Origin: Elusimicrobia bacterium GWA2_51_34
GTDB taxonomy: Bacteria; Elusimicrobiota; Elusimicrobia; Elusimicrobiales; UBA9959
Assembly (NCBI GenBank): GCA_001799565.1
Contig: MGTS01000042.1
Span: 157,793 to 221,792, forward strand
DNA length: 64,000 nt
Direction: 5' to 3'
Shown: positions 1,117 through 33,633 of the stretch, piece after piece
Layout of the letters: each line of letters opens with the position of its first letter
Numbering within the stretch: the first letter of the stretch is position 1
Notes under the pieces: model-generated
Databases searched by the model: none
What the model was told of the DNA's origin: nothing
Seen by the model: only the letters and a program-made list of their open reading frames with translations
Translations under genes and position numbers: made by a program

Positions 1117-1148
1117 TCACTGGACACTGTTCACTAACCACTAGCCAC
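1117..1148. repeat. Tandem heptamer tract CACTNNN (single arm) between ribF and truB
   Basis: cactgga cactgtt cactaac cactagc cac. Overlaps the truB stop. Confidence 0.5.
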
Positions 1149-1841
1149 TTTTATAAGCCTTGCCTTAATTTCCTGCGCGCTTAAGGCAATCATTGCCTCT
1201 CTGGTAATTGAATCTGAAACATTAAAGCGCCCTATGGACTCGCGCCTTAAAGCGGCAAGGTGGCCGAAAACTCCGAGCGTGTTGCCAAGTTCGTGCGCGA
1301 TGGAGCGGATGTAGGTGCCGCCGGAACATTCAATTTTAAATTGCAGTTCCGCGCCTTTGAGCTCCCAGGAAAGCCACTTTACCCGCGCCTCACGCTTTAT
1401 TTCCGGCATGACCGCGTTATCACGGGCCATGGCGTAAAGGCGCCGTCCCTGGAAGCGCACGGCTGAAAAAGGCGGAACCTGCTGTGTTATTGTTCCGCTG
1501 AAAGCGGCAATGGCACACTTCACGGCCTCTTCCGTTAAATCAGGCAAGGGAAGCTCGGCCATAACCCTGCCCTCGGCGTCCCAGGTATCGGTTTGTGAAC
1601 CGAATTTTATAACTCCGCAGTAAACCTTTGAAGAACCCTGCAGGGATGCCTGGATTTTGGTTGCGGAACCGACCAGCAGCAGAAGAAGCCCGGTGGCCAT
1701 GGGGTCAAGGGTGCCGCCATGTCCTATTCTTTTAAGGCGCAATTTGTGCCGCAGCAGATCCACAGCGTCGTGGGAAGTAATACCTTTCGGCTTGTCAAAA
1801 AGAAACAGACCTGAGAATAAGGCGGGGGGGATAACTGGCAT
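1134..1841 (-). CDS. truB: tRNA pseudouridine-55 synthase
   Basis: 235-aa ORF with KPKGITSHD and GHGGTLDPMATG motifs. Confidence 0.9.
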   Translation of the reverse strand: MPVIPPALFSGLFLFDKPKGITSHDAVDLLRHKLRLKRIGHGGTLDPMATGLLLLLVGSATKIQASLQGSSKVYCGVIKFGSQTDTWDAEGRVMAELPLPDLTEEAVKCAIAAFSGTITQQVPPFSAVRFQGRRLYAMARDNAVMPEIKREARVKWLSWELKGAELQFKIECSGGTYIRSIAHELGNTLGVFGHLAALRRESIGRFNVSDSITREAMIALSAQEIKARLIKVASG

Positions 1842-3245: not shown

Positions 3246-3271
3246 AATAATCTTAGTACCGCTCAAGTAGA

Positions 3272-3356
3272 CAGAATCCAGGAGTCAGAATTCAGAATAG
3301 TTTAACTTTTTCCGCCACGGACATCCCGATTCTGGCTCCTGAATTCTGACTACCTG
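3272..3356. repeat. Heptamer-arm hairpin, CAGAATY/CAGGAGY dialect
   Basis: Left arm cagaatccaggagtcagaattcagaata and right arm gattctggctcctgaattctgactacctg. Lies between rbfA and infB. Confidence 0.7.
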
Positions 3357-7700: not shown

Positions 7701-7824
7701 CACGCGGATTGATTATAACTCCCGGCACGCAAAGCAGTACGGTTTGGACGCCATTCGCAATAGCGTCCCCTGCGGTGATCTGTTGCGGTAAGGCAGACTA
7801 AAAGCGGCAAATATAAAATCTAAA

Positions 7825-7863
7825 ACAGCGGGCGCGGGTAAAATCCGTGCCCGCTGTTTTTTA
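7825..7863 (-). terminator. Rho-independent terminator (bidirectional shape) after the DUF1116 gene
   Basis: 12-13 bp GC-rich stem acagcgggcgcgg/ccgtgcccgctgt with loop gtaaaat, flanked by T-runs on both strands. Confidence 0.7.
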
Positions 7864-9276: not shown

Positions 9277-9291
9277 GTTATCTCCATATTT

Positions 9292-9397
9292 AAGGTCACA
9301 TGCCACAAGTCAGCTTAGTCTCAAGTTTCAAGTTACAAGTTCAAGCGAACTCACATTCTGGACTTGTGACCTGTGACCTGTGACTTGTGACTTGTAA
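9292..9397. repeat. Heptamer-arm hairpin, GTCACAR dialect, AACTCACATTCT loop
   Basis: Left arm is made of ..cacaagt/caagttt units and the right arm is gacttgtgacctgtgacctgtgacttgtgacttgtaa. The loop motif is shared with 26564.. and 29688... Confidence 0.8.
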
Positions 9398-10931
9398 TTA
9401 TTCTTCCGGCCAGCCTGCACGCGGCGGCATTTGAGGGCATTACCAGCACGCCTTCTGCCTCAAGGCCCTTCACCACTTTTGAACGCGTCTGCGGGTCCGT
9501 CTCGGTGCCGGTTACAGATGACACAATTGAAAGGCTCTTGTTGGCCTGAAAGGCTTTCCGTATGGACGGCAAAATATCATCCAAGGGCCGCATGTTAGAG
9601 CCGTAGCCCAGCACTACGTCAAGCAGAATAACGGACACATCAGGTCTGACGGCTTCAGAAACTATCATTTTGTTGCGCAGGGAATAGTCTATCATCGGGT
9701 GAGGGCGGCCTACGGTAAATTCGTCCTCGCCCAGATCAACAACCGCGTGCTCAGTAAGACGCATTGAGTCTTTCAATTTCCATTTTTTATCCAGCGGAGC
9801 GTTGGACCAGAGCGGGCCGATAATGCCAGGCAGGATTACCTGCGCTTCGCTTACGAAGGTGCCGCCTGAAAACAGGCCTCGCAAGTATTTACCGGCGGAT
9901 TTTTTCAGCGCAGCTTCCTTCCGCGCCAGGGTTTCCGCTTTCAGGTTCGTGTCGTAAATAATTTCTTTGGCCCTGGCCATTTGCCAGCCCTTACTGAGGC
10001 AGACCGCCTTTAACGCCGCTTCCTCAAGAGTGTTCGCCGCGTAAAAATTATCTTTTATCTTTCCCTTTATTTCTCCGCCCAGAAAGATCGCCGCCACGGG
10101 TTTTTTTATTTTTTTGATTTCCACGATTATCTTTTTAAGTATTTCAGGATGGGGGGGCTTTGAAACTATAAGTATTACCTCAGTGGCGGAGTCCGCGGCC
10201 AGCATTTTCAAACCCTGCAGCAGGGTAAGGGCCCCCACCTCAAGTTTAACGTCGCGCGAGCCGGTGCCTATAGCCTGAGAAACACCCGCGCCTTCATTTG
10301 AAATAAGCGTGGACACTTCCTGAAGGCCGGTGCCTGAAGCCGCCACTATGCCTATGTTCCCGCGCCGCACGGAGTTGGCAAAAGCGAGCGGCGCCCCGTT
10401 TATTATCGCGGTACCGCAGTCGGGGCCCATTACCAGCAGGCCTTTGGCAAGCGCCAGCTTTTTAAGTTCCACCTCCGTTTCCAGCGGAACGTTATCGGAA
10501 AAAAGCATCACATTAAGATTTTTTTCAAGGCAGTCGGCCGCCAACGCTCCGGCAAAGCGGCCTGCCACCGAAACTATGGCCAGGTTAGCACCGTCAAGCG
10601 TTTTAACTGCGTCCTCAAGGCCGGAGGCTTTTCTGTCGGAGCCGGCTTCGGCGGGGGCGGGCTTCCTGTTGAGCAATTCTTCTGCGGCCTTAAGCGCCGC
10701 TTCAGCCGCCGGCGGGTTTTTGGCTTTAACGGCCACAGCCAGGTCGCTGTCGCCGGCTTTAAGCACTTCCGGAGTAAGCAGACCGGACGCTTTTATAATT
10801 CCCTTGTTTTCCCTGGTGGCCATCACCACGGCCGAGTCTATTACTCCGGGAATAGAGTTAAGTTTTCTCGCGACCTGCATAAGCGAAACCGAGTCAAAAT
10901 AAGCGCCTTTTTTAATAATCGTTTTTATCAT
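9351..10931 (-). CDS. fdrA: FdrA-like acyl-CoA synthetase family protein
   Basis: 526 aa with a succinyl-CoA-synthetase-alpha-like CoA-binding/ligase fold signature. Clusters with DUF1116 and DUF2877 as in E. coli fdrA-ylbE-ylbF. The C-terminal tail SHKSQVTGHKSRM is encoded by the repeat arm. Confidence 0.75.
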   Translation of the reverse strand: MIKTIIKKGAYFDSVSLMQVARKLNSIPGVIDSAVVMATRENKGIIKASGLLTPEVLKAGDSDLAVAVKAKNPPAAEAALKAAEELLNRKPAPAEAGSDRKASGLEDAVKTLDGANLAIVSVAGRFAGALAADCLEKNLNVMLFSDNVPLETEVELKKLALAKGLLVMGPDCGTAIINGAPLAFANSVRRGNIGIVAASGTGLQEVSTLISNEGAGVSQAIGTGSRDVKLEVGALTLLQGLKMLAADSATEVILIVSKPPHPEILKKIIVEIKKIKKPVAAIFLGGEIKGKIKDNFYAANTLEEAALKAVCLSKGWQMARAKEIIYDTNLKAETLARKEAALKKSAGKYLRGLFSGGTFVSEAQVILPGIIGPLWSNAPLDKKWKLKDSMRLTEHAVVDLGEDEFTVGRPHPMIDYSLRNKMIVSEAVRPDVSVILLDVVLGYGSNMRPLDDILPSIRKAFQANKSLSIVSSVTGTETDPQTRSKVVKGLEAEGVLVMPSNAAACRLAGRIITSHKSQVTGHKSRM

Positions 10932-10948
10932 ATGTTCTCCATAAATTT

Positions 10949-11061
10949 CAGTCTCAAGTCACAGGTCACAAGTCACAAGTGAAAACAAGACAATCACAAG
11001 TCCCCAGTAAACTGCAGAACTGCTATTTACTTGTGACCTGTGACTGGTGTCCTGTAACCTG
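10949..11061. repeat. Heptamer-arm hairpin, GTCACAR dialect
   Basis: Left arm ctcaagtcacaggtcacaagtcacaagt... and right arm acttgtgacctgtgactggtgtcctgtaacctg. Confidence 0.75.
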
Positions 11062-11065
11062 CGCT

Positions 11066-11890
11066 TCAAGACGTAGTCAAAACGTCTTGAAGCGCAAAGA
11101 CCAATCCCGCGCAGAAATCCGCGCCTGAGGTATGTCCGCTTTTAAAGGCGTCCGCCGCCGCGGAAAGTAATTCCCGCTTTCCGGAACCGCAAAGGGCGAT
11201 CATAAGCCGCTTTATTTTAAACGTTACCAAGCCCTCATATGAACAGCGCAGGAAGGTATTGGAAATAAGGTTTCCGCCCTCTGAATTTTTATAAACCGCC
11301 AGGGCCGCTTTTTCAGTGTTAAGGCGCAGGCTTTTGCGCGCGAAACCAAGGCCGGCAAGCATGCCGCTTAAAAAATCATCGCCGGAGGGGGTAAGCCCGA
11401 AGCCAAGTCCGCGCATCATTCTGGCTCCGGCGGCGTAAGCCCCGGCGCTTAACAAGCCAGCGGCTTTTTTCATGCGCAATAGCATCTTACGCTCAAAAAC
11501 CCGCCGGAACTCAAGTTCCGCGTCCGGGTCAAAAATAAAACGCATGCTTCGCGGCGGAGCTCCGACCGCGAAAAAAACCTTCAGGGTTTCAATATTTTCG
11601 CGGACAAGGGCCGGCTCCGCGTCCAGTTCCGGCACGGAAGAATCATACATGGCGTCGGGCGCCTTCCGCAGGCGGTTATCGTCAACATAAAAAGAGAATT
11701 TGGTGGCCCTGAATTTTCTGGCGCCCGCGGGGATCTGCTTGACAACCAGATTAACCGGCCCGGCGCCCGCGCCCGGCGAAACCAGTGAAATTATCAGGCG
11801 TCCCCTGCGGAAATTAACCGCGTGCTCAAATGCCGAATGCAGGCGGTAATCGCCTTCAGGGATATTGTCGCCGAATGAGAGTAAGTCCAT
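11066..11890 (-). CDS. DUF2877 protein (E. coli YlbF-like)
   Basis: 274 aa. Size and position beside fdrA-like and DUF1116 genes match the ylbF family. Assigned from context and recollection. Confidence 0.6.
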   Translation of the reverse strand: MDLLSFGDNIPEGDYRLHSAFEHAVNFRRGRLIISLVSPGAGAGPVNLVVKQIPAGARKFRATKFSFYVDDNRLRKAPDAMYDSSVPELDAEPALVRENIETLKVFFAVGAPPRSMRFIFDPDAELEFRRVFERKMLLRMKKAAGLLSAGAYAAGARMMRGLGFGLTPSGDDFLSGMLAGLGFARKSLRLNTEKAALAVYKNSEGGNLISNTFLRCSYEGLVTFKIKRLMIALCGSGKRELLSAAADAFKSGHTSGADFCAGLVFALQDVLTTS

Positions 11891-11894
11891 GGTT

Positions 11895-12049
11895 AGTCAC
11901 AGGTCACAAGTCACCAGTCACAAGTAATAAATAGGGAAAGTCCTGGGGCTCATGTCACAAAACACAGGTACCAAGTCACATGTAACAAGTCATCAGTAAC
12001 GGCAAAGAGCCTCCTTAATACTTGTGACCTGTGACTTGTGACTTGTGAC
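11895..12049. repeat. Heptamer-arm hairpin, GTCACAR dialect (double left arm)
   Basis: Left arm agtcacaggtcacaagtcaccagtcacaagt plus a second degenerate arm. Loop is ggcaaagagcctccttaata. Right arm is cttgtgacctgtgacttgtgacttgtgac. Confidence 0.75.
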
Positions 12050-12815
12050 AATTTTCCTGCCAGGGAAAATCCTTACGCTCTCCTATAAACGGAAACCGCG
12101 CGCGCGTTTTTTCCACTAAAGCTTTATCAATATGCGCTTCCGATATGTAAATGCCCTCAGCCGTGCCCGCGTCCAGAACCGTCTTCCCGAGCGGGTCGAA
12201 GCACATGGAATTGCCGCTATACTCAACCGTGCCCTCAAGGCCGATGCGGTTTACACCGGCGCAATAAGCCTGGTTTTCCACGGCGCGCGCACGAAGCAGC
12301 GTCATCCAGTGTTCCGCGCGGCGCATGGGCCAGGCGGCTATCACGATATAAATATCAGCTTTCGCCGCCATGTTCCAGAATAAATAGGGAAACCGCAGGT
12401 CAAAACAGACCGCCGGCATTACTTTCAGGCCTTCAAGCTCAAAAAGTTCCTGCTTTGAACCCGCTTTATAACATTTATCTTCGCCGCCGAAAGCGTAGAG
12501 GTGGATTTTTGAATAAGTATTTATGCGGTCACCGTGCCTGTTCAGCGTTACAAGGTTGTTGAAGCCGTTTTCCACCCCGCCGTAGGAAATATTAATGTTT
12601 CGTTTCTGGGCCAGATCGCGAAAGAAATTCCTGTCGGAGTCGTTTAATTCGGCTATGGCGGTCTTCATGGTGAAACCGCTTAAAGTCATCTCGGAAAATA
12701 TAAGCCAGTCAATCTCGTTCTTGCGCGGACAGTTTTCTATCAGTTCTTCAATTTTTTTCTTATTGGCTTCCTTGTCTTCCCATTTGACATTGTACTGACA
12801 TAGGGCAAGTTTCAT
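12015..12815 (-). CDS. Carbon-nitrogen hydrolase family protein (nitrilase/amidase superfamily)
   Basis: 266 aa with Glu-Lys-Cys triad contexts (FSEM, KIHLY, PAVCFDLRFP). The C-terminal HKSQVTGHKY is encoded by the repeat arm. Confidence 0.8.
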   Translation of the reverse strand: MKLALCQYNVKWEDKEANKKKIEELIENCPRKNEIDWLIFSEMTLSGFTMKTAIAELNDSDRNFFRDLAQKRNINISYGGVENGFNNLVTLNRHGDRINTYSKIHLYAFGGEDKCYKAGSKQELFELEGLKVMPAVCFDLRFPYLFWNMAAKADIYIVIAAWPMRRAEHWMTLLRARAVENQAYCAGVNRIGLEGTVEYSGNSMCFDPLGKTVLDAGTAEGIYISEAHIDKALVEKTRARFPFIGERKDFPWQENCHKSQVTGHKY

Positions 12816-12835
12816 TATGGTACGGCCTCCTGTTT

Positions 12836-12926
12836 GACTACAAGCTAGTAAGCTGGTAGGCTAGTATGCTGGTATGCTTTTTAAGGAACTCCTTATAAGG
12901 CCTACTAGCCTACCCGCCTACTAGCA
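12836..12926. repeat. Octamer-arm hairpin, CTACCAGC dialect, palindromic AAGGAACTCCTT loop
   Basis: Left arm agctagtaagctggtaggctagtatgctggtatgc, loop tttttaaggaactccttataagg, right arm cctactagcctacccgcctactagc. Shares a 27-nt identical run with 42143... Confidence 0.8.
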
Positions 12927-12936
12927 GACCCATGCC

Positions 12937-15420: not shown

Positions 15421-15465
15421 TTCACTTGACCATGTCCCCTGCGTCACTTGTGACCTATGACTTTA
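15421..15465. repeat. Single degenerate CACTTGTGAC-type arm
   Basis: Sequence ttcacttgaccatgtcccctgcgtcacttgtgacctatgac, with no obvious partner arm nearby. Confidence 0.4.
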
Positions 15466-15734
15466 AAAAGGCGCCAGACGCCGCTTCGGGTTATATCTTT
15501 TTACTATAGTTGATTGCGCGTCAGACGCAGGCGCGCCGCAGCCTGCTTTAAAGCGGACCGTGTTGACTGAAATGTGGTTCTTGCCCGGAGAAAACAACCA
15601 GGTTGAACGGGAACGAGCCGACGCGGCGACGGGGACAATACGGGACGTTACCGGCGGCACCGGAGCTGACTGGCTTTCATCCGTTTTGGCTCGCCGTAAA
15701 CAAATTCCCATTGATACTCCAAAAAGGCTGCCTT

Positions 15735-15780
15735 TTCACTCTTTCTTACTCTACACTCGCCACTATCCACTAGACACTTA
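15735..15780. repeat. Tandem heptamer tract (..CAC T.. units), single arm
   Basis: Units tcactct ttcttac tctacac tcgccac tatccac tagacac. Overlaps the 2Fe-2S gene stop. Confidence 0.4.
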
Positions 15781-16245
15781 TTTTCCTTTCGCCGCCTCCG
15801 CTATCGCTTCTACTATCGGTTCATAGCCGGTGCAGCGGCAGAGGTTGCCGGCAATGGCTTCTTTAATTTCGTGATTATCGGGCTTTGAGTTCTTCTCAAG
15901 TAATTCGGTGGCGGAAAGAATCACTCCCGGAGCGCAGAAGCCGCACTGAAAGGCGTTCTTTTCATGAAATTTTTTCTGAAGCTTCTGCGTCCACTTGCGG
16001 GTATTGGCGCCTTCAAGCGTAACTATCTCCGCGCCGTCCGCCTCTACGGCAAGTGCCAGGCACGAACGTACGGTTCTGCCGTTCATCAGCACTGTGCAGG
16101 TGCCGCAGTCGCCGCGGTCGCAGCCCACTTTCGGGCTTTTGATCCCCAGCTTATTGCGCAGCACGTCCAGCAGGACATCATTGGGTTCTACTTCAATAGA
16201 AATTTTTTCATTATTTAAGCTAAATTGAATATTGTGTCGTTTCAT
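15778..16245 (-). CDS. (2Fe-2S)-binding small subunit of the XDH-family enzyme
   Basis: 155 aa with plant-type ferredoxin cysteines (CDRGDCGTC) and a second cluster motif (CGFCAPG ... CRCTGY). Confidence 0.9.
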   Translation of the reverse strand: MKRHNIQFSLNNEKISIEVEPNDVLLDVLRNKLGIKSPKVGCDRGDCGTCTVLMNGRTVRSCLALAVEADGAEIVTLEGANTRKWTQKLQKKFHEKNAFQCGFCAPGVILSATELLEKNSKPDNHEIKEAIAGNLCRCTGYEPIVEAIAEAAKGK

Positions 16246-16259
16246 TAATACTTCCTTGA

Positions 16260-16286
16260 TAGTCGAGAGTTTAGAGTCGAGAGTCT
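16260..16286. repeat. 3' arm (mRNA sense) of the stem bracketing four-helix gene 1, GAGAGTC/TAGAGT dialect
   Basis: tagtcgagagtttagagtcgagagtc is complementary over tagagtttagagt and flanks to 16667-16701. Confidence 0.7.
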
Positions 16287-16639
16287 GGGATTTTATTTGA
16301 ATTTGAGAGTCCTGTTATCATTCTCCCTATTCCATCAGCATCAGAATACAAAGTTTTATGTTTGACTTCTTCAATATAATTCAACTCTAGAGAAAGTCGC
16401 AGGAGAGTTGTTGTTTCACAAAGCGATCCATAAGACATAGACAAAAAATGTTTAAATTCTTTTTTAGATTTTCGCCCGGCGCCTTCAGCGATATTAAGCA
16501 CCACTGAAACTGCCGCCCTGCGTATTTGAGATGTGACCCCGAACATCTCATCCGCAGGAAAGCCCTTGGTCACCATATAGATTTCCTTAGTAAAAGATAA
16601 TGCCTTTTGCCAGACCATTAGTTTTTCAAAGCCAAACAT
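16271..16639 (-). CDS. Four-helix-bundle protein (23S rRNA intervening-sequence protein / Avd family)
   Basis: 122 aa with the hallmark pattern LxVWQKA...FPxxExFGxTSQxRRAAxSVxLNIAEGxGR...GSLxE. The last codons (DSRL) lie in the repeat arm. Confidence 0.85.
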   Translation of the reverse strand: MFGFEKLMVWQKALSFTKEIYMVTKGFPADEMFGVTSQIRRAAVSVVLNIAEGAGRKSKKEFKHFLSMSYGSLCETTTLLRLSLELNYIEEVKHKTLYSDADGIGRMITGLSNSNKIPDSRL

Positions 16640-16666
16640 TATAAGTCTCCCGCCTTTCCGCTTTCG

Positions 16667-16701
16667 GACACTCTAAACTCTAGACTCTCCACTCTACACT
16701 A
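16667..16701. repeat. 5' arm (mRNA sense) of the stem bracketing four-helix gene 1
   Basis: gacactctaaactctagactctccactctacacta. Overlaps the stop of the FAD-subunit gene. Confidence 0.7.
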
Positions 16702-17587
16702 TATTGTTTTCTCCATAACACGGACCTTTCCCGGACAGACGGGCCAGCGCTATTTCAAGCGCGCGCTCGAGCATAATTTCGGCCATATGCAGACGGTATT
16801 CCTTGCTGGAGCGGATATCTGCTATGGGACTGATTTCTGAAAGTATCAGTTTTCTGGCTTTTCCCAAAACCGGGGCGGAAAGTTTGTTGCCGTTAAGCAG
16901 CCGTTCGGTTTTTGGGCATCGCGCCGGTTTTGGCCCCAAAGCGCAGGTTGCCACGCGATAAGTGTTGTCCGCAAAAGCCAGAACGGCTATACCGCCCTGG
17001 GCCAGATCTTCGCCTTCATAGCGGCAAAGCTTCATGTAGCAGCCGGCGTGTTTTTTCTCCGGGAGCGGGAGTTCAAGCCCGGTAACTATTTCGTCGGCGG
17101 CAAGCGCGGTTTTTTTAGGGCCCGCGAACCAGTTGTGTATGGAAACGGCGCGTTCGCCCCTTATAGCGCGGACCAGCACCACCGCGTCGTAGACGGCCAG
17201 CACGGGCGCGGAATCCGCCGAGGGCACGGCCGAGCAGATATTACCGGCCACAGTGGCGCGATTGCGCACCCCTGTTGAGGCCACGGTAAGCGAAGCCTCC
17301 CACAGCAGGGGATACCTGGTTTTAACCAGGTCGGATTCTATGAGGTCCGCAAAAGTGACAAGCGCCCCTATTTTCAGTTTGTTGCCGTCAAGCGTCAGGC
17401 CGCGCAGCTCTTCAAGGTTTTTTATGTCAACCACTATTTCGGGTTTGGCGATATTTTCTTTAAGTTGCACAACCAGGTCGGTGCCGCCGGCAAGGGCTTT
17501 GGCTTTCTCACGGTAAAGTGAAAAGACATGAAGAGCTTCGTCCATGTCTTTGGGTTTAATGTACTCAAATTCAGTAGTAATAGGCAT
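16694..17587 (-). CDS. FAD-binding medium subunit of the XDH-family enzyme (CoxM/XdhB-like)
   Basis: 297 aa with a FAD_binding_5-type N-terminal region (AGGTDLVV) and a CO-dehydrogenase flavoprotein C-terminal-like region. Confidence 0.85.
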   Translation of the reverse strand: MPITTEFEYIKPKDMDEALHVFSLYREKAKALAGGTDLVVQLKENIAKPEIVVDIKNLEELRGLTLDGNKLKIGALVTFADLIESDLVKTRYPLLWEASLTVASTGVRNRATVAGNICSAVPSADSAPVLAVYDAVVLVRAIRGERAVSIHNWFAGPKKTALAADEIVTGLELPLPEKKHAGCYMKLCRYEGEDLAQGGIAVLAFADNTYRVATCALGPKPARCPKTERLLNGNKLSAPVLGKARKLILSEISPIADIRSSKEYRLHMAEIMLERALEIALARLSGKGPCYGENNIV

Positions 17588-17608
17588 GTAATTTACCTCC
17601 GGTAAATT

Positions 17609-17641
17609 AAGTCACAAGTCACAGGTCACAAGACACAAGCC
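17609..17641. repeat. 3' arm (mRNA sense) of the stem bracketing four-helix gene 2, GTCACAR dialect
   Basis: aagtcacaagtcacaggtcacaagacacaagcc is complementary (about 21 bp with 1 mismatch) to each unit at 18053-18225. Confidence 0.75.
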
Positions 17642-17672
17642 AGCAGTAATTAGTTACAGGCAGTTCCGACAC

Positions 17673-18023
17673 CTAAAGACTTTTATAGAAACACCACAAC
17701 AAACGGCCTGTCTCACACCTTAACGTCTCAACCTCAGCAAAAACTTTTTCCGGCAAATATCCCACGTCTTTACAAAACTCAAGCAGGTATTCGGTCTCGG
17801 CAAGAGAACCAAGAGCTATGTTTGCAAACTGCTTTAATTCTTTATTCCCTTGCCTACCGGTTCCCTCAACTATATTCACAGGCACAGATAGTGCGGCACG
17901 CCTCAACTGGCTTGTAACCCCATAAACTTCATCTTTTGGAAAAGACGATGTAGCGGCATAAACGGCCTTTGCCAATGCATCCGCTTTCTTCCATACCTCA
18001 AGCTTTTTGTATCCCTTTTCCAC
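17673..18023 (-). CDS. Four-helix-bundle protein (23S rRNA intervening-sequence protein / Avd family), paralog 2
   Basis: 116 aa with GTG start. Same hallmark pattern (LEVWKKA...FPKDEVYGVTSQLRRAALSVPVNIVEGTGR...GSLAE). Confidence 0.85.
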   Translation of the reverse strand: MEKGYKKLEVWKKADALAKAVYAATSSFPKDEVYGVTSQLRRAALSVPVNIVEGTGRQGNKELKQFANIALGSLAETEYLLEFCKDVGYLPEKVFAEVETLRCETGRLLWCFYKSL

Positions 18024-18052
18024 GCTTATCCCTTCTGATTTCTGTCTTGTGA

Positions 18053-18225
18053 CAACATAAATTCTGCTACTTGTGACCTGTGACTTGTGACAACAGAAAT
18101 TCTGCTACTTGTGACCTGTGACTTGTGTCTTGTGACAACAGAAATTCTGCTACTTGTGACCTGTGACTTGTGTCTTGTGACAACAGAAATTCTGCTACTT
18201 GTGACCTGTGACTTGTGTCTTGTGA
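18053..18225. repeat. Tandem array, one 38-nt plus three 45-nt units (caacagaaattctgctacttgtgacctgtgacttgtgtcttgtga)
   Basis: Units start at 18053, 18091, 18136 and 18181. The three full units are identical or nearly identical. Each contains a GTCACAR-dialect arm. Confidence 0.9.
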
Positions 18226-18226
18226 C

Positions 18227-18254
18227 AGCAAAATGAGCGAAAGCTCATTTTGCT
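18227..18254 (-). terminator. 12-bp stem with GAAA-type tetraloop right after the cyclase stop codon
   Basis: agcaaaatgagc-gaaa-gctcattttgct. There is no clean U-run beyond the stem, so it may be a stabiliser or processing hairpin rather than a terminator. Confidence 0.3.
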
Positions 18255-19069: not shown

Positions 19070-19089
19070 ATTTTTTCCTCCGTAAAAAA

Positions 19090-19250
19090 TGCCATAAGCC
19101 GTAAGTTTCAGATACGGCTATTTGCCATAAGCCATAGGCAGAAAGACTGCCATAAGCTTTACGCCATATGCCATAGGCTTGTAAGGAACTCCTTAAAAGC
19201 TTACGGCCTATGGCGGGTGCGGCGCCCTTATGGCCTACGGCGTAACAAAG
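19090..19250. repeat. Hairpin, CCATARGC dialect, AAGGAACTCCTT loop
   Basis: Left part gccataagccgtaagtttcagatacggctatttgccataagccataggc..., loop gtaaggaactccttaaaagc, right arm ttacggcctatggcgg..cttatggcctacgg. Homologous in reverse orientation to 27403... Confidence 0.8.
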
Positions 19251-19336
19251 CGATAGACGCTTTGTTACTATGAATTTTAACAAATGCGGGAGGGGGGTTC
19301 AATGTAAGAAAAATTCAACTCTGGCTCTCTTTATAT

Positions 19337-19367: not shown

Positions 19368-19460
19368 AATCCTCAGTCACGGACAGCGCCATAGGCCCGC
19401 GACAAGCCAGTGTCACTGGAGGTGCCGTCTCAAAGGCCTATGGCCCTCAAACGGCCAGCG
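19367..19460 (+). repeat. ~95-nt palindromic element, intergenic copy A
   Basis: caatcctcagtcacggacagcgccataggcccgcgacaagccagtgtcactggaggtgccgtctcaaaggcctatggccc... is about 90 percent identical by eye to 40611-40706 inside yidC. Confidence 0.8.
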
Positions 19461-22084: not shown

Positions 22085-22154
22085 AATAAAGCCTCCCAGA
22101 AAATTGATGCATAGATGCGTGGATGCGCGGCAATGTGGAAGTAAGAAGTTCCCG

Positions 22155-23252
22155 TCACCGGGAACTTCTTATCTTCCTGATAATTTCATTGACCCATTCG
22201 CTTTCTTTTACCACTTTGATCTGTTTGCCTTTCTCTATCCACACGCCCCTGCCCACGGCGCCCGCTATCCCAAAATCCGCCGAACGCGCCTCGCCCGGTC
22301 CGTTTACCACGCAGCCCATCACGGCAATCTTCAGGCCTTGCGAGCGCTTAAGAAGGGCCTTGTCGGAATAAATCCTGTCTTCAAGCTCGTGTATTATTTT
22401 GCTCACGCTCACCTGGCAGCGCCCGCAGGTGGGGCAGCTTATAAGGTTTGGGCCGTAAACGCGCAGCCCCAGGGCCTTTAAAATTTCATAAGCGGCGCGC
22501 ACCTGCATGACCGGGTCCTCGGTAAGCGACACGCGCACGGTATCACCCACTCCCTGGGAAAGCAGCAGACCTATGCCAAGCGAAGATTTCACCGTGCCGG
22601 AGAGAAAACTGCCGGCCTCTGTCACGCCAAGATGCAGCGGTATATCCGATTTTTCCGAAAAGAGCAAATTGGCCATTACCGTGCGCTCCAGATCGTCGGC
22701 TTTCAGCGAAACCACTATGTCGCCAAAATCCATATTTTCAAGAACGCGCGCCTGGTCCAGCGCCTCTTTAACCATCATCTTCGCCCACTCACCGGGTTCC
22801 CAACGCGGATTTGGATTGGTTTTAAGGGCGTTAAGCGAGCCTGCGTTTACGCCTATCCTTATGGGCACATCCGAAGACTTGCAGGCCCTGGCCACTTCCC
22901 TGACCTTGTCTCTGTCGCCTATATTTCCCGGGTTTATGCGTATTTTATCTACGCCCTGCCTTACGGCTTCAAGGGCCAGCCTGTGGTCAAAGTGAATATC
23001 CGCAACCAGCGGGATGCCTATGGCGCTTTTAATGCGGCCCAGGTTTTGGGCCGCTTCCATGTCGGGCACGGCCACCCTTATAATTTCGCAGCCCGCGTCT
23101 TCCAACCGGCGTATCTGGTCTACCGTGGCTTTAAGATTACGCGTGTCTGTGTTGCACATGGACTGCACTGAAACGGGGTTTGAGCCGCCTATAGCGAAGC
23201 GGCCCACTTTTACCGTCCTGGTTTTTTTGGTTTTGGAATGGCCGTGTGTCAT
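22155..23252 (-). CDS. ispG: 4-hydroxy-3-methylbut-2-en-1-yl diphosphate synthase
   Basis: 365 aa. IspG-like, with C-terminal 4Fe-4S cysteines (CPTCGRC ... GCVVNGPGE). Confidence 0.95.
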   Translation of the reverse strand: MTHGHSKTKKTRTVKVGRFAIGGSNPVSVQSMCNTDTRNLKATVDQIRRLEDAGCEIIRVAVPDMEAAQNLGRIKSAIGIPLVADIHFDHRLALEAVRQGVDKIRINPGNIGDRDKVREVARACKSSDVPIRIGVNAGSLNALKTNPNPRWEPGEWAKMMVKEALDQARVLENMDFGDIVVSLKADDLERTVMANLLFSEKSDIPLHLGVTEAGSFLSGTVKSSLGIGLLLSQGVGDTVRVSLTEDPVMQVRAAYEILKALGLRVYGPNLISCPTCGRCQVSVSKIIHELEDRIYSDKALLKRSQGLKIAVMGCVVNGPGEARSADFGIAGAVGRGVWIEKGKQIKVVKESEWVNEIIRKIRSSR

Positions 23253-25574: not shown

Positions 25575-25587
25575 CTTTAATGAAGAG

Positions 25588-25718
25588 ATTACAGCGATAA
25601 CATACGGCGATTACAGTGATAGATGAACCAACAATTTGTTAACCTGATATTTCTTATTATCGCTGTCGTCTCTTTACCCATCGCCGTAATCCCTGCGTTC
25701 TTTATCGCTGTAATCATA
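25588..25718. repeat. Hairpin with GATTACAGCG/CGCTGTAATC-type arms
   Basis: Left arm agattacagcgataacatacggcgattacagtgataga. Right arm tattatcgctgtcg...catcgccgtaatcc...ttatcgctgtaatc. Followed by stem gggctgc-ttttca-gcagccc at the cdsA stop. Confidence 0.7.
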
Positions 25719-25737
25719 GGGCTGCTTTTCAGCAGCC

Positions 25738-26547
25738 CTACCTGGTGAACACGGCCAGATAGTAAATTATGGGCGCGAGGAATATATACGAGTCAAACCG
25801 GTCAAGCACTCCGCCGTGTCCCGGCAGGAGATTGGAAGAATCTTTCACTCCCACGGCCCGCTTAAGCATTGACTCCGCTATATCGGAGACCTGGCCGAAA
25901 ACTCCTATCAGCGCTCCGGCCGCCAGAGCGAAGGCCGGGGAAACGGTTTCTTTGGCGGCAAGGCGCAGAACGAAAACAGAACCGATGGCGAAAATAAAGC
26001 CGGCCGCCGCTCCCTCCCAGGTTTTTTTAGGGCTAATGGTTGAAAGCTTTCGTCTGCCGAAACGCCTGCCGATGACATAAGCGGCTGTGTCCATGATCCA
26101 GACCGTCACTATCAGCATGAAAGTAAGCCATTCGCCGTCGGGCCTTAAGTCCCGCAGGGCTATAAGGTGAAAAAGGCACCAGCTCACCATAAAAATACCC
26201 AGCAAAGTCAGCCCTATGCGCTCAAGGTACTTGTGGGTGGAAAAAAGCTCGTAAATCATGGTAAAGATAACGGTGAGCGTTATAAAAAAACCTGCAAAGT
26301 TATCACCGCCGGCCTGGGCCGCGTAGTTGTGGTCAAAAAAAAGCGCAACCGGCAACAGCATCCCCATGATAAAAAGCGTGGCTCCCTGCACCGGCTTTCT
26401 GCCAAGTTTAAGCAGGGAATTATACTCGTACAGGGAAAGCATGATAACGGTGAAAATAAAACAGGCGTAGGTCAGGCCGCCGACATGGATGAACCAAATT
26501 ACCAGGGGTATGCCGGCTATTGCGGTTAAGAATCTGGGTAAAGGCAT
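25738..26547 (-). CDS. cdsA: Phosphatidate cytidylyltransferase
   Basis: 269 aa multi-TM protein with the C-terminal CDS signature (SxxKRxxGVKDSSNLLPGHGGVLDRFDS). Confidence 0.9.
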   Translation of the reverse strand: MPLPRFLTAIAGIPLVIWFIHVGGLTYACFIFTVIMLSLYEYNSLLKLGRKPVQGATLFIMGMLLPVALFFDHNYAAQAGGDNFAGFFITLTVIFTMIYELFSTHKYLERIGLTLLGIFMVSWCLFHLIALRDLRPDGEWLTFMLIVTVWIMDTAAYVIGRRFGRRKLSTISPKKTWEGAAAGFIFAIGSVFVLRLAAKETVSPAFALAAGALIGVFGQVSDIAESMLKRAVGVKDSSNLLPGHGGVLDRFDSYIFLAPIIYYLAVFTR

Positions 26548-26563
26548 AAATTATAGGCTGATT

Positions 26564-26663
26564 TACAAGTCACAAGTCACAAGCCATATTAATCTCAAGT
26601 TGCAGGTCACAAGTCTGAAGTAAACTCACATTCTGCACTTGTGACGTGTGACTTGTGACTTGC
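26564..26663. repeat. Heptamer-arm hairpin, GTCACAR dialect, AAACTCACATTCT loop
   Basis: tacaagtcacaagtcacaagcc...ctcaagttgcaggtcacaagtctgaagtaaactcacattctgcacttgtgacgtgtgacttgtgacttg. Confidence 0.8.
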
Positions 26664-27371
26664 CTAAGCGCCTCTCCTTCTTTCACGGGCCTGGTAATCC
26701 AGCAGAGCCCGGGTAAACTCCTTCGCGCCGAAATCCGGCCAAAGGGTGTCGGTGACATAAAATTCCGAATACGCGGTCTGCCAAAGCAGGAAATTTGAAA
26801 TGCGCCGCTCGCCGGAAGTTCTTATCAGCAGATCCGGGTCCGGCAAAGCCGGAGTGTAGAGCAGAGCGGAAAAACTTTTCTCGTCCACACTTTTGACACC
26901 CGAAGAAAGAGCGGTGTTGACAGCGTCAAGTATCTCCTGGCGGCCGCCGTAATTTATGGCGACATTCAGCGTCATACCGGTGTTGCCGGAAAGTTTTCGC
27001 GTAGTCTGATCTATTTTTTCCCGCGCGTTCGCGCTCAGAGCGTCAAGCCTTCCGCTTATCACCAGGCGCACTTTTTCACGGTTCAGCTCATCGGCGTAAC
27101 TGGTAATAGCCTGCTCAAGCAGAAACATAAGAGCTTTTATTTCCAGTTTTGAGCGGCTCCAGTTTTCTGTTGAGAAAGCGTAAAGAGTAAGGGCTTTAAT
27201 GCCGGCGTCGCTGGCGGCTTTTACCACGGTATGCACGGCTTCCACGCCTTTTTTATGGCCCGCTACGGCGGGCAGACCGCGGCTCCGCGCCCAACGGCGG
27301 TTGCCGTCCATAATAATGGCCACATGTCCGGGAAGGCGGGCGCGGTCAAGGGTATCAGTAGTGGTTTTCAT
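26664..27371 (-). CDS. uppS: Isoprenyl transferase (undecaprenyl diphosphate synthase)
   Basis: 235 aa with HVAIIMDGNRRWA and RTSGExRxSNFLLWQ motifs. Confidence 0.95.
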   Translation of the reverse strand: MKTTTDTLDRARLPGHVAIIMDGNRRWARSRGLPAVAGHKKGVEAVHTVVKAASDAGIKALTLYAFSTENWSRSKLEIKALMFLLEQAITSYADELNREKVRLVISGRLDALSANAREKIDQTTRKLSGNTGMTLNVAINYGGRQEILDAVNTALSSGVKSVDEKSFSALLYTPALPDPDLLIRTSGERRISNFLLWQTAYSEFYVTDTLWPDFGAKEFTRALLDYQARERRRGA

Positions 27372-27402
27372 TGTAGATAGGGCACAATGACAAGGCTATT
27401 AT

Positions 27403-27520
27403 TGCCATAGGCCGTATGCCATAGGCTTTATGAAGAATTTCCTTAATACGGCTTAAGAGCATATGGCCTATGGCAATAGCCGTATCTAAAATTTACGGCT
27501 TATGGCTTAAGCTTATGGCT
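27403..27520. repeat. Hairpin, CCATAGGC dialect
   Basis: Left arm ttgccataggccgtatgccataggc, loop tttatgaagaatttccttaatacgg, right part catatggcctatggcaatagccgtatctaaaatttacggcttatggcttaagcttatggc. Confidence 0.8.
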
Positions 27521-27527
27521 TTACTTT

Positions 27528-29675: not shown

Positions 29676-29687
29676 AATTAAGAAGGT

Positions 29688-29786
29688 TGCAAGTCACAAG
29701 CCAGCATAATTTCAAGTTTCAGGGTACAAGTTTCAAGCAAACTCATATTCTTCACTTGTGTCCTGTGACTTGTGTCTTGTGACCTG
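29688..29786. repeat. Heptamer-arm hairpin, GTCACAR dialect, AAACTCATATTCT loop
   Basis: ttgcaagtcacaagcc...ttcaagtttcagggtacaagtttcaagcaaactcatattcttcacttgtgtcctgtgacttgtgtcttgtgacc. Confidence 0.8.
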
Positions 29787-29790
29787 GCTT

Positions 29791-30699: not shown

Positions 30700-30732
30700 A
30701 AGTTATGCTCCATGATAGTAATTGACCAAGTT

Positions 30733-30809
30733 GTTCAGGCTGTAGGGAGTTAGACTATTAGGTAAGAATTCTGATTTGACTAATAGCCTACCGCCTACCC
30801 GCCTGAACA
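30733..30809. repeat. Hairpin, GGCTGTAGG/CTAATAGCC dialect
   Basis: gttcaggctgtagggagttagactattaggtaagaattctgatttgactaatagcctaccgcctacccgcctgaac. Confidence 0.75.
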
Positions 30810-30815
30810 GTTACG

Positions 30816-31670: not shown

Positions 31671-31719
31671 CTGTGTTGTTCCTCCGTGCTCTCAACGTTT
31701 CTTTTCCCGCCCTCTGAAC

Positions 31720-31795
31720 AAAGTCACAAGTTTACATGTCTCAAGTCACAAGCCAGAAAGTTCCAGTCTCCCCACTTGCAACCTGTAACTTGCGC
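31720..31795. repeat. Heptamer-arm hairpin, degenerate GTCACAR dialect
   Basis: Left arm caaagtcacaagtttacatgtctcaagtcacaagcc and right arm ccacttgcaacctgtaacttgcg. Confidence 0.6.
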
Positions 31796-31860
31796 CGCAC
31801 TGGAGCAGGATTTCACTTGTGCTATGTTATCATATTAAGGGAGCTTGATTCAACGGTTTT

Positions 31861-31889
31861 TTACACGACCGCTCCATATTTTCTATACT
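31861..31889 (+). promoter_or_regulatory. Candidate promoter of nadE
   Basis: TTACAC - 17 nt - TATACT, 28 nt upstream of the nadE ATG. Confidence 0.35.
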
Positions 31890-31917
31890 CTTATTCTAAG
31901 TCAGAACGCACAATATT

Positions 31918-33573
31918 ATGAAAATAGCCGTGGCGCAGATAAATCCGAAAGTGGGCGATATTGAAGGCAACCTTGCCCGCGTAAAAAAATTCTCCCTGGC
32001 GGCGGCCTCGGCCGGCGCGGAACTGACGGTTTTCCCTGAACTGGCGCTCACCGGCTACCCGCCGCTTGACCTGCTTGAGAATGAAGACTTCATAAAAGCG
32101 AATCTGCGCGCTCTTAAAAAACTAGCCTCCCTTAAAATTAAAACAGCCATTGTGGTAGGGTGTGCGGATTTTAATCATTCTCCGAAAGGCAAGGCGCTGC
32201 GGAACTGCGCGGCGCTTGTAGCGGGAGGCAAAATACTCGCGCTCAGAGCGAAGTCGCTTTTACCCGCCTATGGCGTTTTTGACGAGGCGCGCTATTTTGA
32301 GCCCGCCGCGGAAAACCTGCCAGTGGTATTTAACGGAAGAAAGCTGGGGCTCACCATATGCGAAGATATCTGGGCGGGCACTGAACTTTTACCAAAGCGC
32401 CTGCTTTACAGAAACAACCCCGTTGAAACGCTCTGCGCGCGCAAGGCGGAAATTATTATAAACATCTCCGCCTCTCCTTATTATTACGGTAAAACAGCCA
32501 GGCGGTTCGCCGTACTTTCCGGTCTGGCTAAAAAAATAAAAAAACCCGTTATTTACGCCAACCAGACCGGAGCCAACGACGAACTTATATTTGACGGCAA
32601 CAGTTTCGCGCTTGACGCGAAAGGGCGGCTGACCGCCAAGGCCCGATCTTTCCGGGAAGACCTTATACTGACGGATACCGGTGAAAAAACCGCGCGCGTT
32701 GAATTCGACCTGCCGTCTAAAGGCGCAGAACTGGGCTTGGCTCTCACGCTTGGGATACGGGATTATTTTTTAAAGTCAGGCCACTCAAAGGCCGTGCTTG
32801 GCCTCAGCGGGGGAATAGACTCCGCCGTGGCGGCGGCGCTGGCCGCCCGGGCGCTTGGGCCCGGCAATGTGGAGGCACTGCTTATGCCCTCCGCCTACAC
32901 CTCTGCAAGAAGCGTTTCAGACGCGCTCGCGCTTGCCGGGAACCTGGGAATAAAATCAGAAATTCTGCCCATAAAAAACATTTACTCGGCCTTCCTTAAA
33001 ACGCTTGGGTGCGCGCGAAATAAGAGCGTGCCCCTTTACATGCAAAACTTACAGGCGCGCGCGCGCGGCACGCTTTTAATGGCGCGCGCGAACATTACGG
33101 GGGCGTTGGCGCTTGTAACCGGAAATAAATCCGAGATAGCCGTGGGTTACTGCACGCTCTACGGCGACACGGCGGGCGCGCTTGCCCTGTTAGCCGACCT
33201 GGTGAAGGAGGATGTTTACGCCGTTGCGCGCTGGCTGAATTCCACCGGGGAACTGATACCGCTCTCCATAATAAACCGACCGCCCACCGCAGAGCTAAAG
33301 CCCGGACAAAAAGATTCCGACGACCTGCCTCCTTATAAAATTCTTGACCGAGTGATCCGCCTGTATATCGAGCAGAATAAAAATCCCGCGGCAATCGCCG
33401 CGCTTTCCGGCCTTGGCAAAAAAACCGTGATCGCGCTGTTAAAACGGATTGAGTCTTCCGAATACAAGCGCAAACAACTTCCAACCGGGCTTATAGTTTC
33501 TGAAAAATCATTCTGCGCCGGTAGAAAAATGCCGGTAACTAAAACCATGGATTTTATTTCGCGACACTCATGA
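31918..33573 (+). CDS. nadE: Glutamine-dependent NAD+ synthetase
   Basis: 551 aa. N-terminal C-N hydrolase domain plus a C-terminal NAD synthetase domain with the SGGIDS PP-loop. Confidence 0.9.
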   Translation: MKIAVAQINPKVGDIEGNLARVKKFSLAAASAGAELTVFPELALTGYPPLDLLENEDFIKANLRALKKLASLKIKTAIVVGCADFNHSPKGKALRNCAALVAGGKILALRAKSLLPAYGVFDEARYFEPAAENLPVVFNGRKLGLTICEDIWAGTELLPKRLLYRNNPVETLCARKAEIIINISASPYYYGKTARRFAVLSGLAKKIKKPVIYANQTGANDELIFDGNSFALDAKGRLTAKARSFREDLILTDTGEKTARVEFDLPSKGAELGLALTLGIRDYFLKSGHSKAVLGLSGGIDSAVAAALAARALGPGNVEALLMPSAYTSARSVSDALALAGNLGIKSEILPIKNIYSAFLKTLGCARNKSVPLYMQNLQARARGTLLMARANITGALALVTGNKSEIAVGYCTLYGDTAGALALLADLVKEDVYAVARWLNSTGELIPLSIINRPPTAELKPGQKDSDDLPPYKILDRVIRLYIEQNKNPAAIAALSGLGKKTVIALLKRIESSEYKRKQLPTGLIVSEKSFCAGRKMPVTKTMDFISRHS

Positions 33574-33633
33574 CCCCACCACCTGCTTGCCCGACTTTGG
33601 CGGGCCCTTTCGGTCCCGAAGCAGGTGGTGGGG
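33574..33633. repeat. Perfect 15-bp GC-rich stem immediately after the nadE stop
   Basis: ccccaccacctgctt ... aagcaggtggtgggg with an internal gcccg/cgggc hairpin. Its left 15 nt recur (1 mismatch) inside mnmG at 46444. Confidence 0.7.

Follow-up and report, generated by a model that had tools for sequence, protein, structure and literature searches.

The 64-kb stretch of Elusimicrobia DNA analysed here (Elusimicrobia bacterium GWA2_51_34, contig MGTS01000042.1, positions 157,793 to 221,792; hereafter the window) carries roughly one repeat element per operon spacer, typically a hairpin whose arms are tandem arrays of 7- or 8-nt units. About 12 unit types, or dialects, coexist within the 64 kb, 8-mers included. 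We propose that these gene-less hairpins are probably miniature members of a single class, which would also comprise cassettes encoding a small protein of the PF05635/TIGR02436 family (S23p), the hairpins formed by short tandemly repeated repetitive (STRR) elements in cyanobacteria, and those intervening sequences (IVSs) of 23S rRNA genes that bear an open reading frame (ORF). In its full-length form, such an element would consist of a small PF05635/TIGR02436 gene lying between a 5' purine-rich (AGTNNNN)n array and a complementary 3' array; the family is also known as the '23S rRNA intervening-sequence protein' or 'four helix bundle protein'. The gene-less and the gene-bearing forms in the window share dialects as well as the 5'-purine polarity of their arms.

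The key to the identity of the elements lies in two arrays that bracket S23p genes (16271-16639 and 17673-18023) and that had been overlooked in the original prediction, an earlier account of the hairpins drawn from the sequence alone. Both enclose PF05635/TIGR02436 ORFs and are inserted in the xanthine-dehydrogenase gene cluster:

16255-16705, minus strand: cassette 1, S23p ORF 16271-16639, with an upstream (AGAGTNN)n array at 16668-16700 and its downstream complement (NNACTCT)n at 16261-16285
17605-18240, minus strand: cassette 2, S23p ORF 17673-18023, with (GTCACAR)n upstream at 18045-18234 and (YTGTGAC)n downstream at 17609-17639

The two proteins score 132.5 and 120.7 bits against PF05635 (cut-off 33.8) and 121.7 and 108.2 bits against TIGR02436 (cut-off 24), and PADLOC returned zero defence-system matches for either of them. 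The dialect of cassette 1 (GAGAGTC/TAGAGTG) is also found in 2 gene-less hairpins, and that of cassette 2 (GTCACAR) in 7. Cassette 1 has orthologues in two other Elusimicrobia contigs, L177 from SRR22388287 (92% protein identity) and L092 (66%), and an alignment of the three shows that the AGT/ACT cores of the units are kept while the intervening positions drift. Upstream of cassette 2, the region 18045-18234 is a 45-nt higher-order repeat of about 4 copies, each made of a GTCACAR array and a CAGAATTTCTG spacer. The distance from the cyclase gene to the S23p gene at this cassette is 230, 330 or 185 nt across assemblies of one population, a difference in array length that could be real copy-number variation or assembly collapse.

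The link between PF05635 genes and arrays extends beyond the window. The first six PF05635 loci that we sampled, from three Elusimicrobia, Pyrinomonadaceae, Daejeonella and Caldiserica (four phyla), all carried arrays. Scanning metagenome contigs with the PF05635 alignment yielded 80 diverse loci, 72 of them usable, with 83 ORFs on the same contigs as controls, and inverted complementarity was scored between the 140 nt upstream of the gene and the region from -45 to +140 around its stop codon. The median score was 16.5 for the 72 PF05635 loci and 8.0 for the controls (Mann-Whitney p = 7e-16), with 51/72 loci above the control 95th percentile as compared with 3/83 controls. Nearly all loci (68/72) had a period-7/8 tract within 200 nt according to Tandem Repeats Finder (TRF), and tract density reached 47.8 per 10 kb near the PF05635 gene versus 4.0 elsewhere on the same contigs. 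Most of these genomes have few tracts in the background, so the arrays are part of the cassette and not simply a ubiquitous landing pad.

The same arrangement is found on annotated plasmids of Calothrix brevissima, Trichormus variabilis ATCC 29413 and Nostoc edaphicum. On plasmid C of T. variabilis (L180, NC_007412.1, ~60340-60790) the S23p arms are made of CAGAATT/CAGGAGT units, the dialect of the window hairpin 3268-3356; the presence of this mixed CAGAATY/CAGGAGT dialect in an Elusimicrobia hairpin and a cyanobacterial cassette could be due to convergence or to horizontal transfer. In the metagenomic PF05635 cassette L121, the arms are built of CCCCAGT. Of 80 IF-2 loci, drawn from many phyla, just one (L057) bears a PF05635 gene; it has an 8-mer hairpin and the gene directly after infB, and shows the highest tract density of those loci that are not AT-rich. 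In Caldiserica, the C-terminus of a 142-aa S23p protein (P0010; L096 3034-3462) is itself translated repeat (SQLSTLNSK...). Taken together, PF05635 genes and arrays are physically linked in five phyla or more, sharing a unit core and a set polarity. In full-text searches of the literature, we found the coupling of PF05635 to heptamers described only for the single case of Coxiella, and no paper linking STRRs to S23p genes. Two things appear to be new: that PF05635 genes are statistically coupled, across phyla, to inverted (AGTNNNN)n arrays of fixed polarity, and the presence of such elements in Elusimicrobia in about 12 dialects, 8-mers included, with roughly one for each operon spacer. Within the literature searched, this is apparently the first description of such elements in that phylum.

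Polarity and unit core are among the features that the two forms have in common. On the sense strand, the upstream arm of the cassettes contains more G than C in 49 cases and less in 2, and is purine-rich in 41 versus 10. A hairpin's 5' and 3' arms keep their identity whichever strand is read, so gene-less hairpins can be put to the same test; in the window, 21 of them have the more purine-rich arm on the 5' side and 4 on the 3' side. Consensus units of the upstream arm in the cross-metagenome set contain AG in 48/52 and AGT in 31/52 (about 8.5 expected), and the general unit form is (AGTNNNN)n, which STRR1, STRR3 and the complement of the TAACTGA repeats all fit. Within the window itself, AGT as the top spaced trinucleotide was rejected, being confounded by the abundant GTCACAR dialect. 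Arms have a median length of 4.4 units (interquartile range 3.9-5.5), with a mode of 4-5 and a range of 2-38. The sense duplex of the cassettes is more stable than the antisense duplex in 35/51 (binomial p = 0.011, Wilcoxon p = 0.0045), a bias that would be expected if the transcript tolerates G·U pairs.

Turning to the window as a whole, TRF (periods 7 and 8, tracts merged) finds 55 tracts; in 20 shuffles that preserve dinucleotides it finds 0-7, with a mean of about 3. Coding sequence takes up 89% of the window and non-coding 11%, yet 43/55 tracts fall in intergenic DNA or at gene edges (binomial p = 2e-31). Most of the rest are the final codons of ORFs reading into an arm, as in AllF (9361-9395) and the CN-hydrolase (12020-12049). 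The earlier view of real dispersed repeat families, as opposed to low-complexity sequence, is borne out. A hairpin had also been claimed for nearly every gap; of the 41 internal gaps that are 40 nt or longer, TRF by itself places a tract in 28, and with fold-detected elements added the number rises to about 35. Where about 35 elements had been counted earlier, our catalogue lists 27 paired gene-less hairpins, 2 gene-bracketing arrays and about 8 single-arm arrays, and contains the four that had been singled out (GTCACAR/YTGTGAC at 9292-9397, 10949-11061 and 11895-12049; 8-mer at 12836-12926). The elements can form imperfect stems of 25-45 bp, and for 25/27 curated hairpins the folding z-score against shuffles lies between -2.8 and -12.6.

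The hairpins are located inside operons. Counted from the stop codon upstream, most begin at -37 to +31 nt, some of them overlapping it; the far end generally lies 0-42 nt short of the next start codon, so that the ribosome-binding site is left outside the stem, and the elements are confined to the stretch from the stop codon to the next ribosome-binding site. AllF (9351-9395) and the CN-hydrolase (12015-12049) take their final 10-15 codons and their stop from the arrays; a period of 7 or 8 shifts the frame with each unit, so that a stop-containing unit would end all three frames within three units. The genes scanned form ordinary housekeeping and metabolic operons, comprising ribF-truB-nrnA-rbfA-infB-nusA-rimP, allFGH together with the xanthine-dehydrogenase genes, proS, ispG, rseP, dxr, cdsA, uppS, frr, pyrH, tsf and rpsB, glyQS and recO, and rnpA-yidD-yidC-jag-mnmE-mnmG-rsmG. 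No tRNA or tmRNA genes were found in the window, and an Rfam scan gave zero matches at gathering thresholds, rRNA included; at E<0.05 its sole match was a chance one to a plant miRNA precursor, at hairpin 11892-12053.

The host comes from Rifle groundwater, and its nearest relatives by IF-2 are all Elusimicrobia. Nine independent assemblies of the window population (L001-L009) are 99.9-100% identical over the region, with the exception of the 45-nt array and two short stretches that are unaligned in L002 and L003. The repeats are therefore real and not an assembly artefact, and assemblies so nearly identical are uninformative on strain-level polymorphism.

The gene-less hairpins and single-arm arrays are the following (dG, folding energy on the plus or minus strand; strand given where one is assigned):

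3268-3356: hairpin, CAGAATY/CAGGAGT units, infB-rbfA gap; dG -31.7 (+), -39.2 (-); z = -5.1
9290-9397: hairpin, GTCACAR, AllF-AllG gap; right arm forms the final AllF codons; z = -4.7; loop in common with 26560 and 29684
10946-11063: hairpin, GTCACAR, AllH-AllF gap; a separate GC hairpin follows at 11060-11096
11893-12051: hairpin, GTCACAR, with an inner array at 11951-11992; right arm gives the stop region of the CN-hydrolase; z = -9.7
12838-12932: hairpin, 8-mer GCTRGTAD/CTACCAGC (GCTGGTAG/CTACCAGC), apex AAGGAACTCCTT, gap between the xanthine-dehydrogenase and CN-hydrolase genes
19086-19262: compound hairpin, GCCATAR units, apex AAGGAACTCCTT; z = -6.1
25583-25706: hairpin, roughly 10-mer GATTACAGCG units, cdsA-dxr gap
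26560-26665: hairpin, GTCACAR, uppS-cdsA gap
27390-27525: hairpin, GCCATAR units, frr-uppS gap; z = -10.4; beats all unit permutations
29684-29787: hairpin, GTCACAR, tsf-pyrH gap
30728-30812: hairpin, GGCTGTAG-type units, rpsB-tsf gap
31712-31802: degenerate GTCACAR hairpin, divergent gap; good fold on the minus strand only, dG -12.3 (+), -29.9 (-)
35076-35206: hairpin, GCCATAR units, gap between convergent genes
37433-37527: hairpin, TAGAGTG units, glyQ-glyS gap
39214-39330: hairpin, GGTTCAC units; 23 nt 96% complementary
42140-42232: hairpin, 8-mer dialect; 28 nt exact in common with 12838
43253-43337: hairpin, CAGGTKR units; sequence ends with a T-run
44755-44848: hairpin, 8-mer dialect, orientation opposite to 42140
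45616-45732: hairpin, 8-mer dialect
48276-48392: hairpin, GGAGTTT/AAACTCC units; z = -7.5
48938-49068: hairpin, TAGAGTG units, 41-nt arms; z = -12.6
53420-53592: hairpin, GGCTGTAG / TAGACTAT units, long loop
54466-54580: hairpin, GTAAAGM units
55310-55478: hairpin, GCGAATA units, with a small repeat nested in the loop
57138-57236: hairpin, GGCTGWAG units; z = -8.2
57603-57682: weak, doubtful hairpin, GAGTCTK; z = -0.4
60323-60440: hairpin, GGTTCAC units
1117-1150, minus strand: single-arm array, (AGTGNNN)5 on the sense strand, ending a few nt before the ribF start codon
1868-1900: single-arm array, TTGCATT/ATTTTAC units
15740-15777, minus strand: single-arm array, (AGTGNNN)n on the sense strand; the equivalent gap of L092 has an AGTG-type array like it
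22106-22127: short single-arm array, GATGCGTR, adjoining a separate GC-rich hairpin at 22137-22177
38529-38567: single-arm array, 8-mer unit TACCAGCC
47562-47588: single-arm array, GGTTCAC, inside the final codons of mnmG

Other features stand beside these elements. A second small dispersed repeat, CGGACARCGCCAKAGGCCCGCGACA, has 3 copies (0 expected) at 19380-19404, 40624-40648 and 55390-55414: the last sits in the loop of a heptamer hairpin, the first about 120 nt past hairpin 19086-19262 in the same gap, and the second in the annotated 5' end of yidC. Its nesting in tandem-heptamer elements recalls small dispersed repeats reported in Nostoc. A 66-nt tandem repeat (54197-54365; 2.6 copies, 92% matches) occupies the 3' part of a TatD-family ORF (53609-54490), whose C-terminal third is probably repeat-derived and not coding, because the Pfam match stops at residue 211 of 293. 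At the left end of the window, positions 1-192 form a G-rich, strongly structured stretch downstream of ribF (dG -82.7 for 217 nt) that has no Rfam match and is cut by the window start. Gene orientation flips across 31671-39555, from all-minus (193-31670) to mostly plus (from 39556). Given this switch, together with the oriC-proximal genes rnpA-yidD-yidC-jag-mnmE-mnmG-rsmG just to the right, the replication origin may lie in or near 31671-39555. The minus-strand version is the more stable in 18/27 hairpins, an excess that may be related to the orientation switch.

Within dialect families, near-identical copies are dispersed over the window and occur in both orientations relative to transcription. 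The 27-nt run reported earlier for 12836 and 42143 is in fact 28 nt exact (12838 versus 42140), the longest that we found within a family. Another reported pair, 19090 and the reverse complement of 27450, shows its better local similarity in that orientation, but only 14 nt match exactly. The conserved loop that had been described is likewise a partial truth: the GTCACAR sub-family at 9290, 26560 and 29684 has a common loop (local scores 60-64 in one orientation), but the cross-dialect apex motif AAGGARYTCCTT gave 2 strict hits only, a number equalled in 17/100 shuffles and not significant. Looser AAGGA..TCCTT-like apexes recur in the window and in the Elusimicrobia contigs L090 and L092, and their significance could not be demonstrated.

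Comparison with L092, a contig syntenic with the window from frr to the CN-hydrolase gene, revealed copy-number and presence/absence dynamics at orthologous sites, as the original prediction requires. In L092, cdsA and dxr overlap, whereas the window has a hairpin-bearing gap of 163 nt, and the gap between the xanthine-dehydrogenase and CN-hydrolase genes is 16 nt long as opposed to 121 nt. The uppS-cdsA gap holds a hairpin in both, of the GGGTAKA dialect in L092 and GTCACAR in the window. Cassette 2 is absent from L092, where a gene-less AAAGTCK hairpin takes its place. Over genus-level divergence, elements are thus gained, lost and replaced in dialect. More distant Elusimicrobia (L010-L031, chosen by IF-2 and 71-78% identical in that protein) carry 0-3 tracts per 10 kb versus about 10 in the window; they are too distant for spacer alignment and serve as a density control only. 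At 10933-12406, L092 also has three extra small genes (Rv0078B-like, DUF6036 and ORF6N/pRha-like) inside the xanthine-dehydrogenase cluster, where the window has an 82-aa ORF (15463-15711); operon spacers of these genomes admit other small cassettes too. The related hairpin-rich contig L090 encodes a 319-aa Y1 (IS200/RAYT-type) transposase at 15789-16748, a candidate mobilising enzyme.

Insertion polymorphism relative to L092 and restriction to one lineage (0-3 tracts per 10 kb in those relatives versus about 10) could also describe selfish DNA resembling miniature inverted-repeat transposable elements (MITEs), that is, non-autonomous copies that play no part at the RNA level and are moved in trans by an ordinary transposase whose gene lies elsewhere. 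The inverted-repeat-like ends, the near-identical dispersed copies (28 nt exact) and the occurrence of both orientations relative to transcription fit this explanation, which we nevertheless consider unlikely. No target-site duplications were found: the longest flanking direct repeat averages 3.6 nt versus 3.8 nt at random and none reaches 6 nt, with the proviso that element ends are fuzzy and short duplications are possible. Moreover, in place of a unique terminal inverted repeat the arms consist of tandem arrays in about 12 dialects; S23p, the only gene linked to them, is no known transposase; and the sense-strand pairing bias of the cassettes argues for a constraint at the RNA level. A Pfam scan of the window ORFs, with five ORFs between 54581 and 62956 outside it, contained no transposase.

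If the hairpins are instead reduced relatives of the S23p cassettes, as we favour, the two arms would pair in the polycistronic transcript into an imperfect stem of 25-45 bp, and this stem would be cut by RNase III as in the IVSs of Coxiella, Leptospira and Salmonella, separating or stabilising the neighbouring cistrons. In the Coxiella IVS, tandem GACAGAT heptamers whose copy number varies by strain precede the S23p ORF, and RNase III cuts inside a 28-bp terminal stem; IVSs of Salmonella, Leptospira and alphaproteobacteria are cited as RNase III substrates as well (PMC4990558). By analogy with these cases, we give folding in the polycistronic RNA and cleavage by RNase III in the window a chance only slightly short of even. 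Such processing would make the elements tolerable inside essential, conserved operons and would punctuate their mRNAs. The arrays would lengthen and shorten by slippage, while new copies would be made at the DNA level, with no target-site duplication and in either orientation, possibly with S23p acting in trans. Punctuation of mRNA and non-autonomous elements were both among the roles suggested in the original prediction, and we retain them as leading readings.

A third suggested role, that of Rho-independent terminators or attenuators built from repeats, did not survive. The elements do form stable stem-loops right after stop codons and one of them, 43253-43337, ends in a T-run, but it is the only one of 24 with a T-run of at least 4 within 15 nt; the other 23/24 have none. 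They also lie inside operons that are co-transcribed across bacteria (rpsB-tsf-pyrH-frr, glyQ-glyS, nusA-infB-rbfA), and orthologous gaps of L092 are without elements altogether. Ordinary GC-rich hairpins, some with T-runs and some adjoining elements, exist separately at 7822-7860, 11060-11096, 22137-22177 and ~25710-25740 (cdsA-dxr gap). Because T-runs are lacking in 23/24 and canonical hairpins sit apart, we conclude that the elements are not terminators, a function that we hold to be highly improbable.

Several observations weigh against our reading of the hairpins as miniature S23p elements processed in RNA. In the arms, pairing at the variable unit positions is mostly not mirrored: nucleotide shuffles are easily beaten, but in a unit-permutation test of 19 elements only 3/19 (6/19 nearly) beat arms with permuted units (Fisher p = 0.06), and complementarity is mainly at the level of the consensus unit, so that the earlier claim of arm complementarity stands by a narrow margin only. 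Between the window and L177, the upstream arm of cassette 1 has about 6 changes and the downstream arm 1, which pairs with none of them; such uncompensated changes point towards selection on the repeated core and not on a perfect stem. The sense strand is the more stable in 16 gene-less hairpins versus 8, which is not significant (p = 0.22). A six-frame search of the window with hidden Markov models found only the two intact PF05635 genes and no pseudogene remnants in gene-less loops, so that recent ORF decay and descent by internal deletion are not supported, and cognate S23p genes for about 10 dialects are not seen within the 64 kb. Finally, S23p is a protein of no established activity that probably goes untranslated in Coxiella (PMC4990558), and RNase III cleavage in the window organism is argued by analogy only.

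The drift of all but the core positions points to a serious alternative, namely that the arrays are protein-binding sites, comparable to those of TRAP (trp RNA-binding attenuation protein) or to iterons. An AG(T) core every 7-8 nt would be bound, on RNA or DNA, by a ring oligomer, most plausibly an S23p pentamer; the hairpin would then be secondary or competing, and the role of the arrays would be to adjust how flanking genes are translated or their stability, or to mark the ends of the element for propagation. This would account for the conserved unit core with variable spacer positions, for the conservation of the cores and not of the variable-position pairing over three orthologous cassettes, and for the unmirrored order of units in most hairpins. 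It would also account for single-arm arrays directly upstream of start codons, as in the TAACTGA repeats of Beggiatoaceae (PMC4679880). The modal arm length of 4-5 units is compatible with a pentamer: the PDB relatives 2GSC and 2RLD have five chains each, and 2GSC is described as a homopentameric toroid (PMC4990558). Binding by S23p is, however, predicted only, arm lengths span 2 to 38 units, and the strict inversion of 5' purines and 3' pyrimidines with a sense-strand bias is what a stem predicts, whereas a single-strand binder would read one arm only. We regard binding arrays as possible, if somewhat doubtful, and as not mutually exclusive with the class of miniature S23p elements proposed here.

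A wider proposal is decidedly tentative. S23p and the (AGTNNNN)n arrays may constitute one widespread two-part system, composed of a pentameric four-helix-bundle protein and its cognate tandem sites on its own flanks, of which STRRs, TAACTGA repeats, ORF-bearing IVSs and the window hairpins would be different states. The gene-less hairpins of each dialect would depend in trans on their own S23p paralogue, which would bind the arrays and control the processing, translation or copying of the element. Cyanobacterial STRRs have been a puzzle since 1990; they serve as fingerprinting markers in cyanobacteria and papers still call their function unknown, while the S23p or 'four helix bundle' family is among the commoner uncharacterised small proteins of bacteria. 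A link between them merges two unexplained observations into one question, testable in tractable hosts such as Anabaena PCC 7120. There are practical consequences too: ORFs reading into arms receive false C-termini in annotation, as in the 142-aa P0010, AllF and the CN-hydrolase; assemblies break at dense hairpins, and those of the window population disagree on the 45-nt array; and operon predictions based on gap length are misled by such hairpins.

In architecture, the elements correspond to hairpin-forming STRRs and ORF-bearing IVSs, so their kind is already known. STRR1 has the unit CCCCAGT, STRR2 TTGGTCA and STRR3 CAACAGT; the first and third fit the AGTNNNN form, and CCCCAGT is the arm unit of L121. 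On plasmids of STRR hosts, S23p genes are flanked by inverted heptamer arrays. The analogy with STRRs drawn in the original prediction was apt, since these too are intergenic, highly iterated tandem heptamers, but its claim that paired arms go beyond them does not stand: some STRRs are inverted and hairpin-forming, including the copies between hupS and hupL and others elsewhere in filamentous cyanobacteria (PMC2670836). Their function is unknown, and roles in transcript stability or translational coupling have been proposed (PMC2670836). In contrast, the window belongs to Elusimicrobia and not to a heterocystous or filamentous cyanobacterium, it has about 12 dialects in 64 kb, 8-mers among them, and neither of its strands contains a tandem dimer of CCCCAGT, TTGGTCA or CAACAGT. 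Coming from another phylum and lacking the canonical units, the window elements are not STRRs in the strict sense.

The 23S IVSs of Coxiella, Leptospira, Xanthomonas and Brucella resemble the two window cassettes in that their terminal inverted repeats make a stem with an S23p ORF in its loop, and that of Coxiella also has tandem heptamers upstream of the ORF. They differ in residing in helix 25 or 45 of 23S rRNA, whereas the window elements lie between protein-coding genes, outside rRNA, and are therefore not 23S IVSs; 27/29 paired window elements have no ORF. The TAACTGA repeats of marine Beggiatoaceae, cyanobacteria and Bacteroidetes are intergenic, in 2-6 copies, mostly just upstream of start codons and patchy across phyla, and their complement TCAGTTA has the AGT core, so that they resemble the single-arm arrays 1117-1150 and 15740-15777; unlike the window elements, they have a single unit type and are almost always direct (169 direct sets versus 1 inverted) (MacGregor 2015, PMC4679880). 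That paper reports no link to S23p, and the word 'intervening' is absent from it.

Repetitive extragenic palindromes (REPs), bacterial interspersed mosaic elements (BIMEs) and MITEs such as Correia, RUP, ERIC and Nezha are likewise small, intergenic, palindromic, dispersed and lineage-specific. They are co-transcribed with flanking genes, and some are substrates of RNase III or RNase E. The window elements differ from REPs and MITEs in having arms made of tandem arrays in many dialects and a linked gene for a four-helix-bundle protein as opposed to a transposase, and from MITEs in having neither a target-site duplication nor a transposase-bearing partner, their gene-bearing relatives encoding S23p only. 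A GTAG/CGTC head with a gene for a REP-associated tyrosine transposase (RAYT) was not noticed in the window, the head motif not having been searched for, and no Y1 transposase was among the scanned ORFs.

The Avd protein of diversity-generating retroelements (DGRs) forms a pentamer and binds nucleic acid. The two window proteins score 32.6 and 24.7 bits against NF033474, well under its equivalog cut-off of 80, and neither a reverse transcriptase among the scanned window ORFs nor a pair resembling template and variable repeats was seen, with no search aimed specifically at either. They share with Avd a homologous four-helix-bundle fold, as indicated by sub-threshold hits to PF22296 and NF033474 (PMC10053308).

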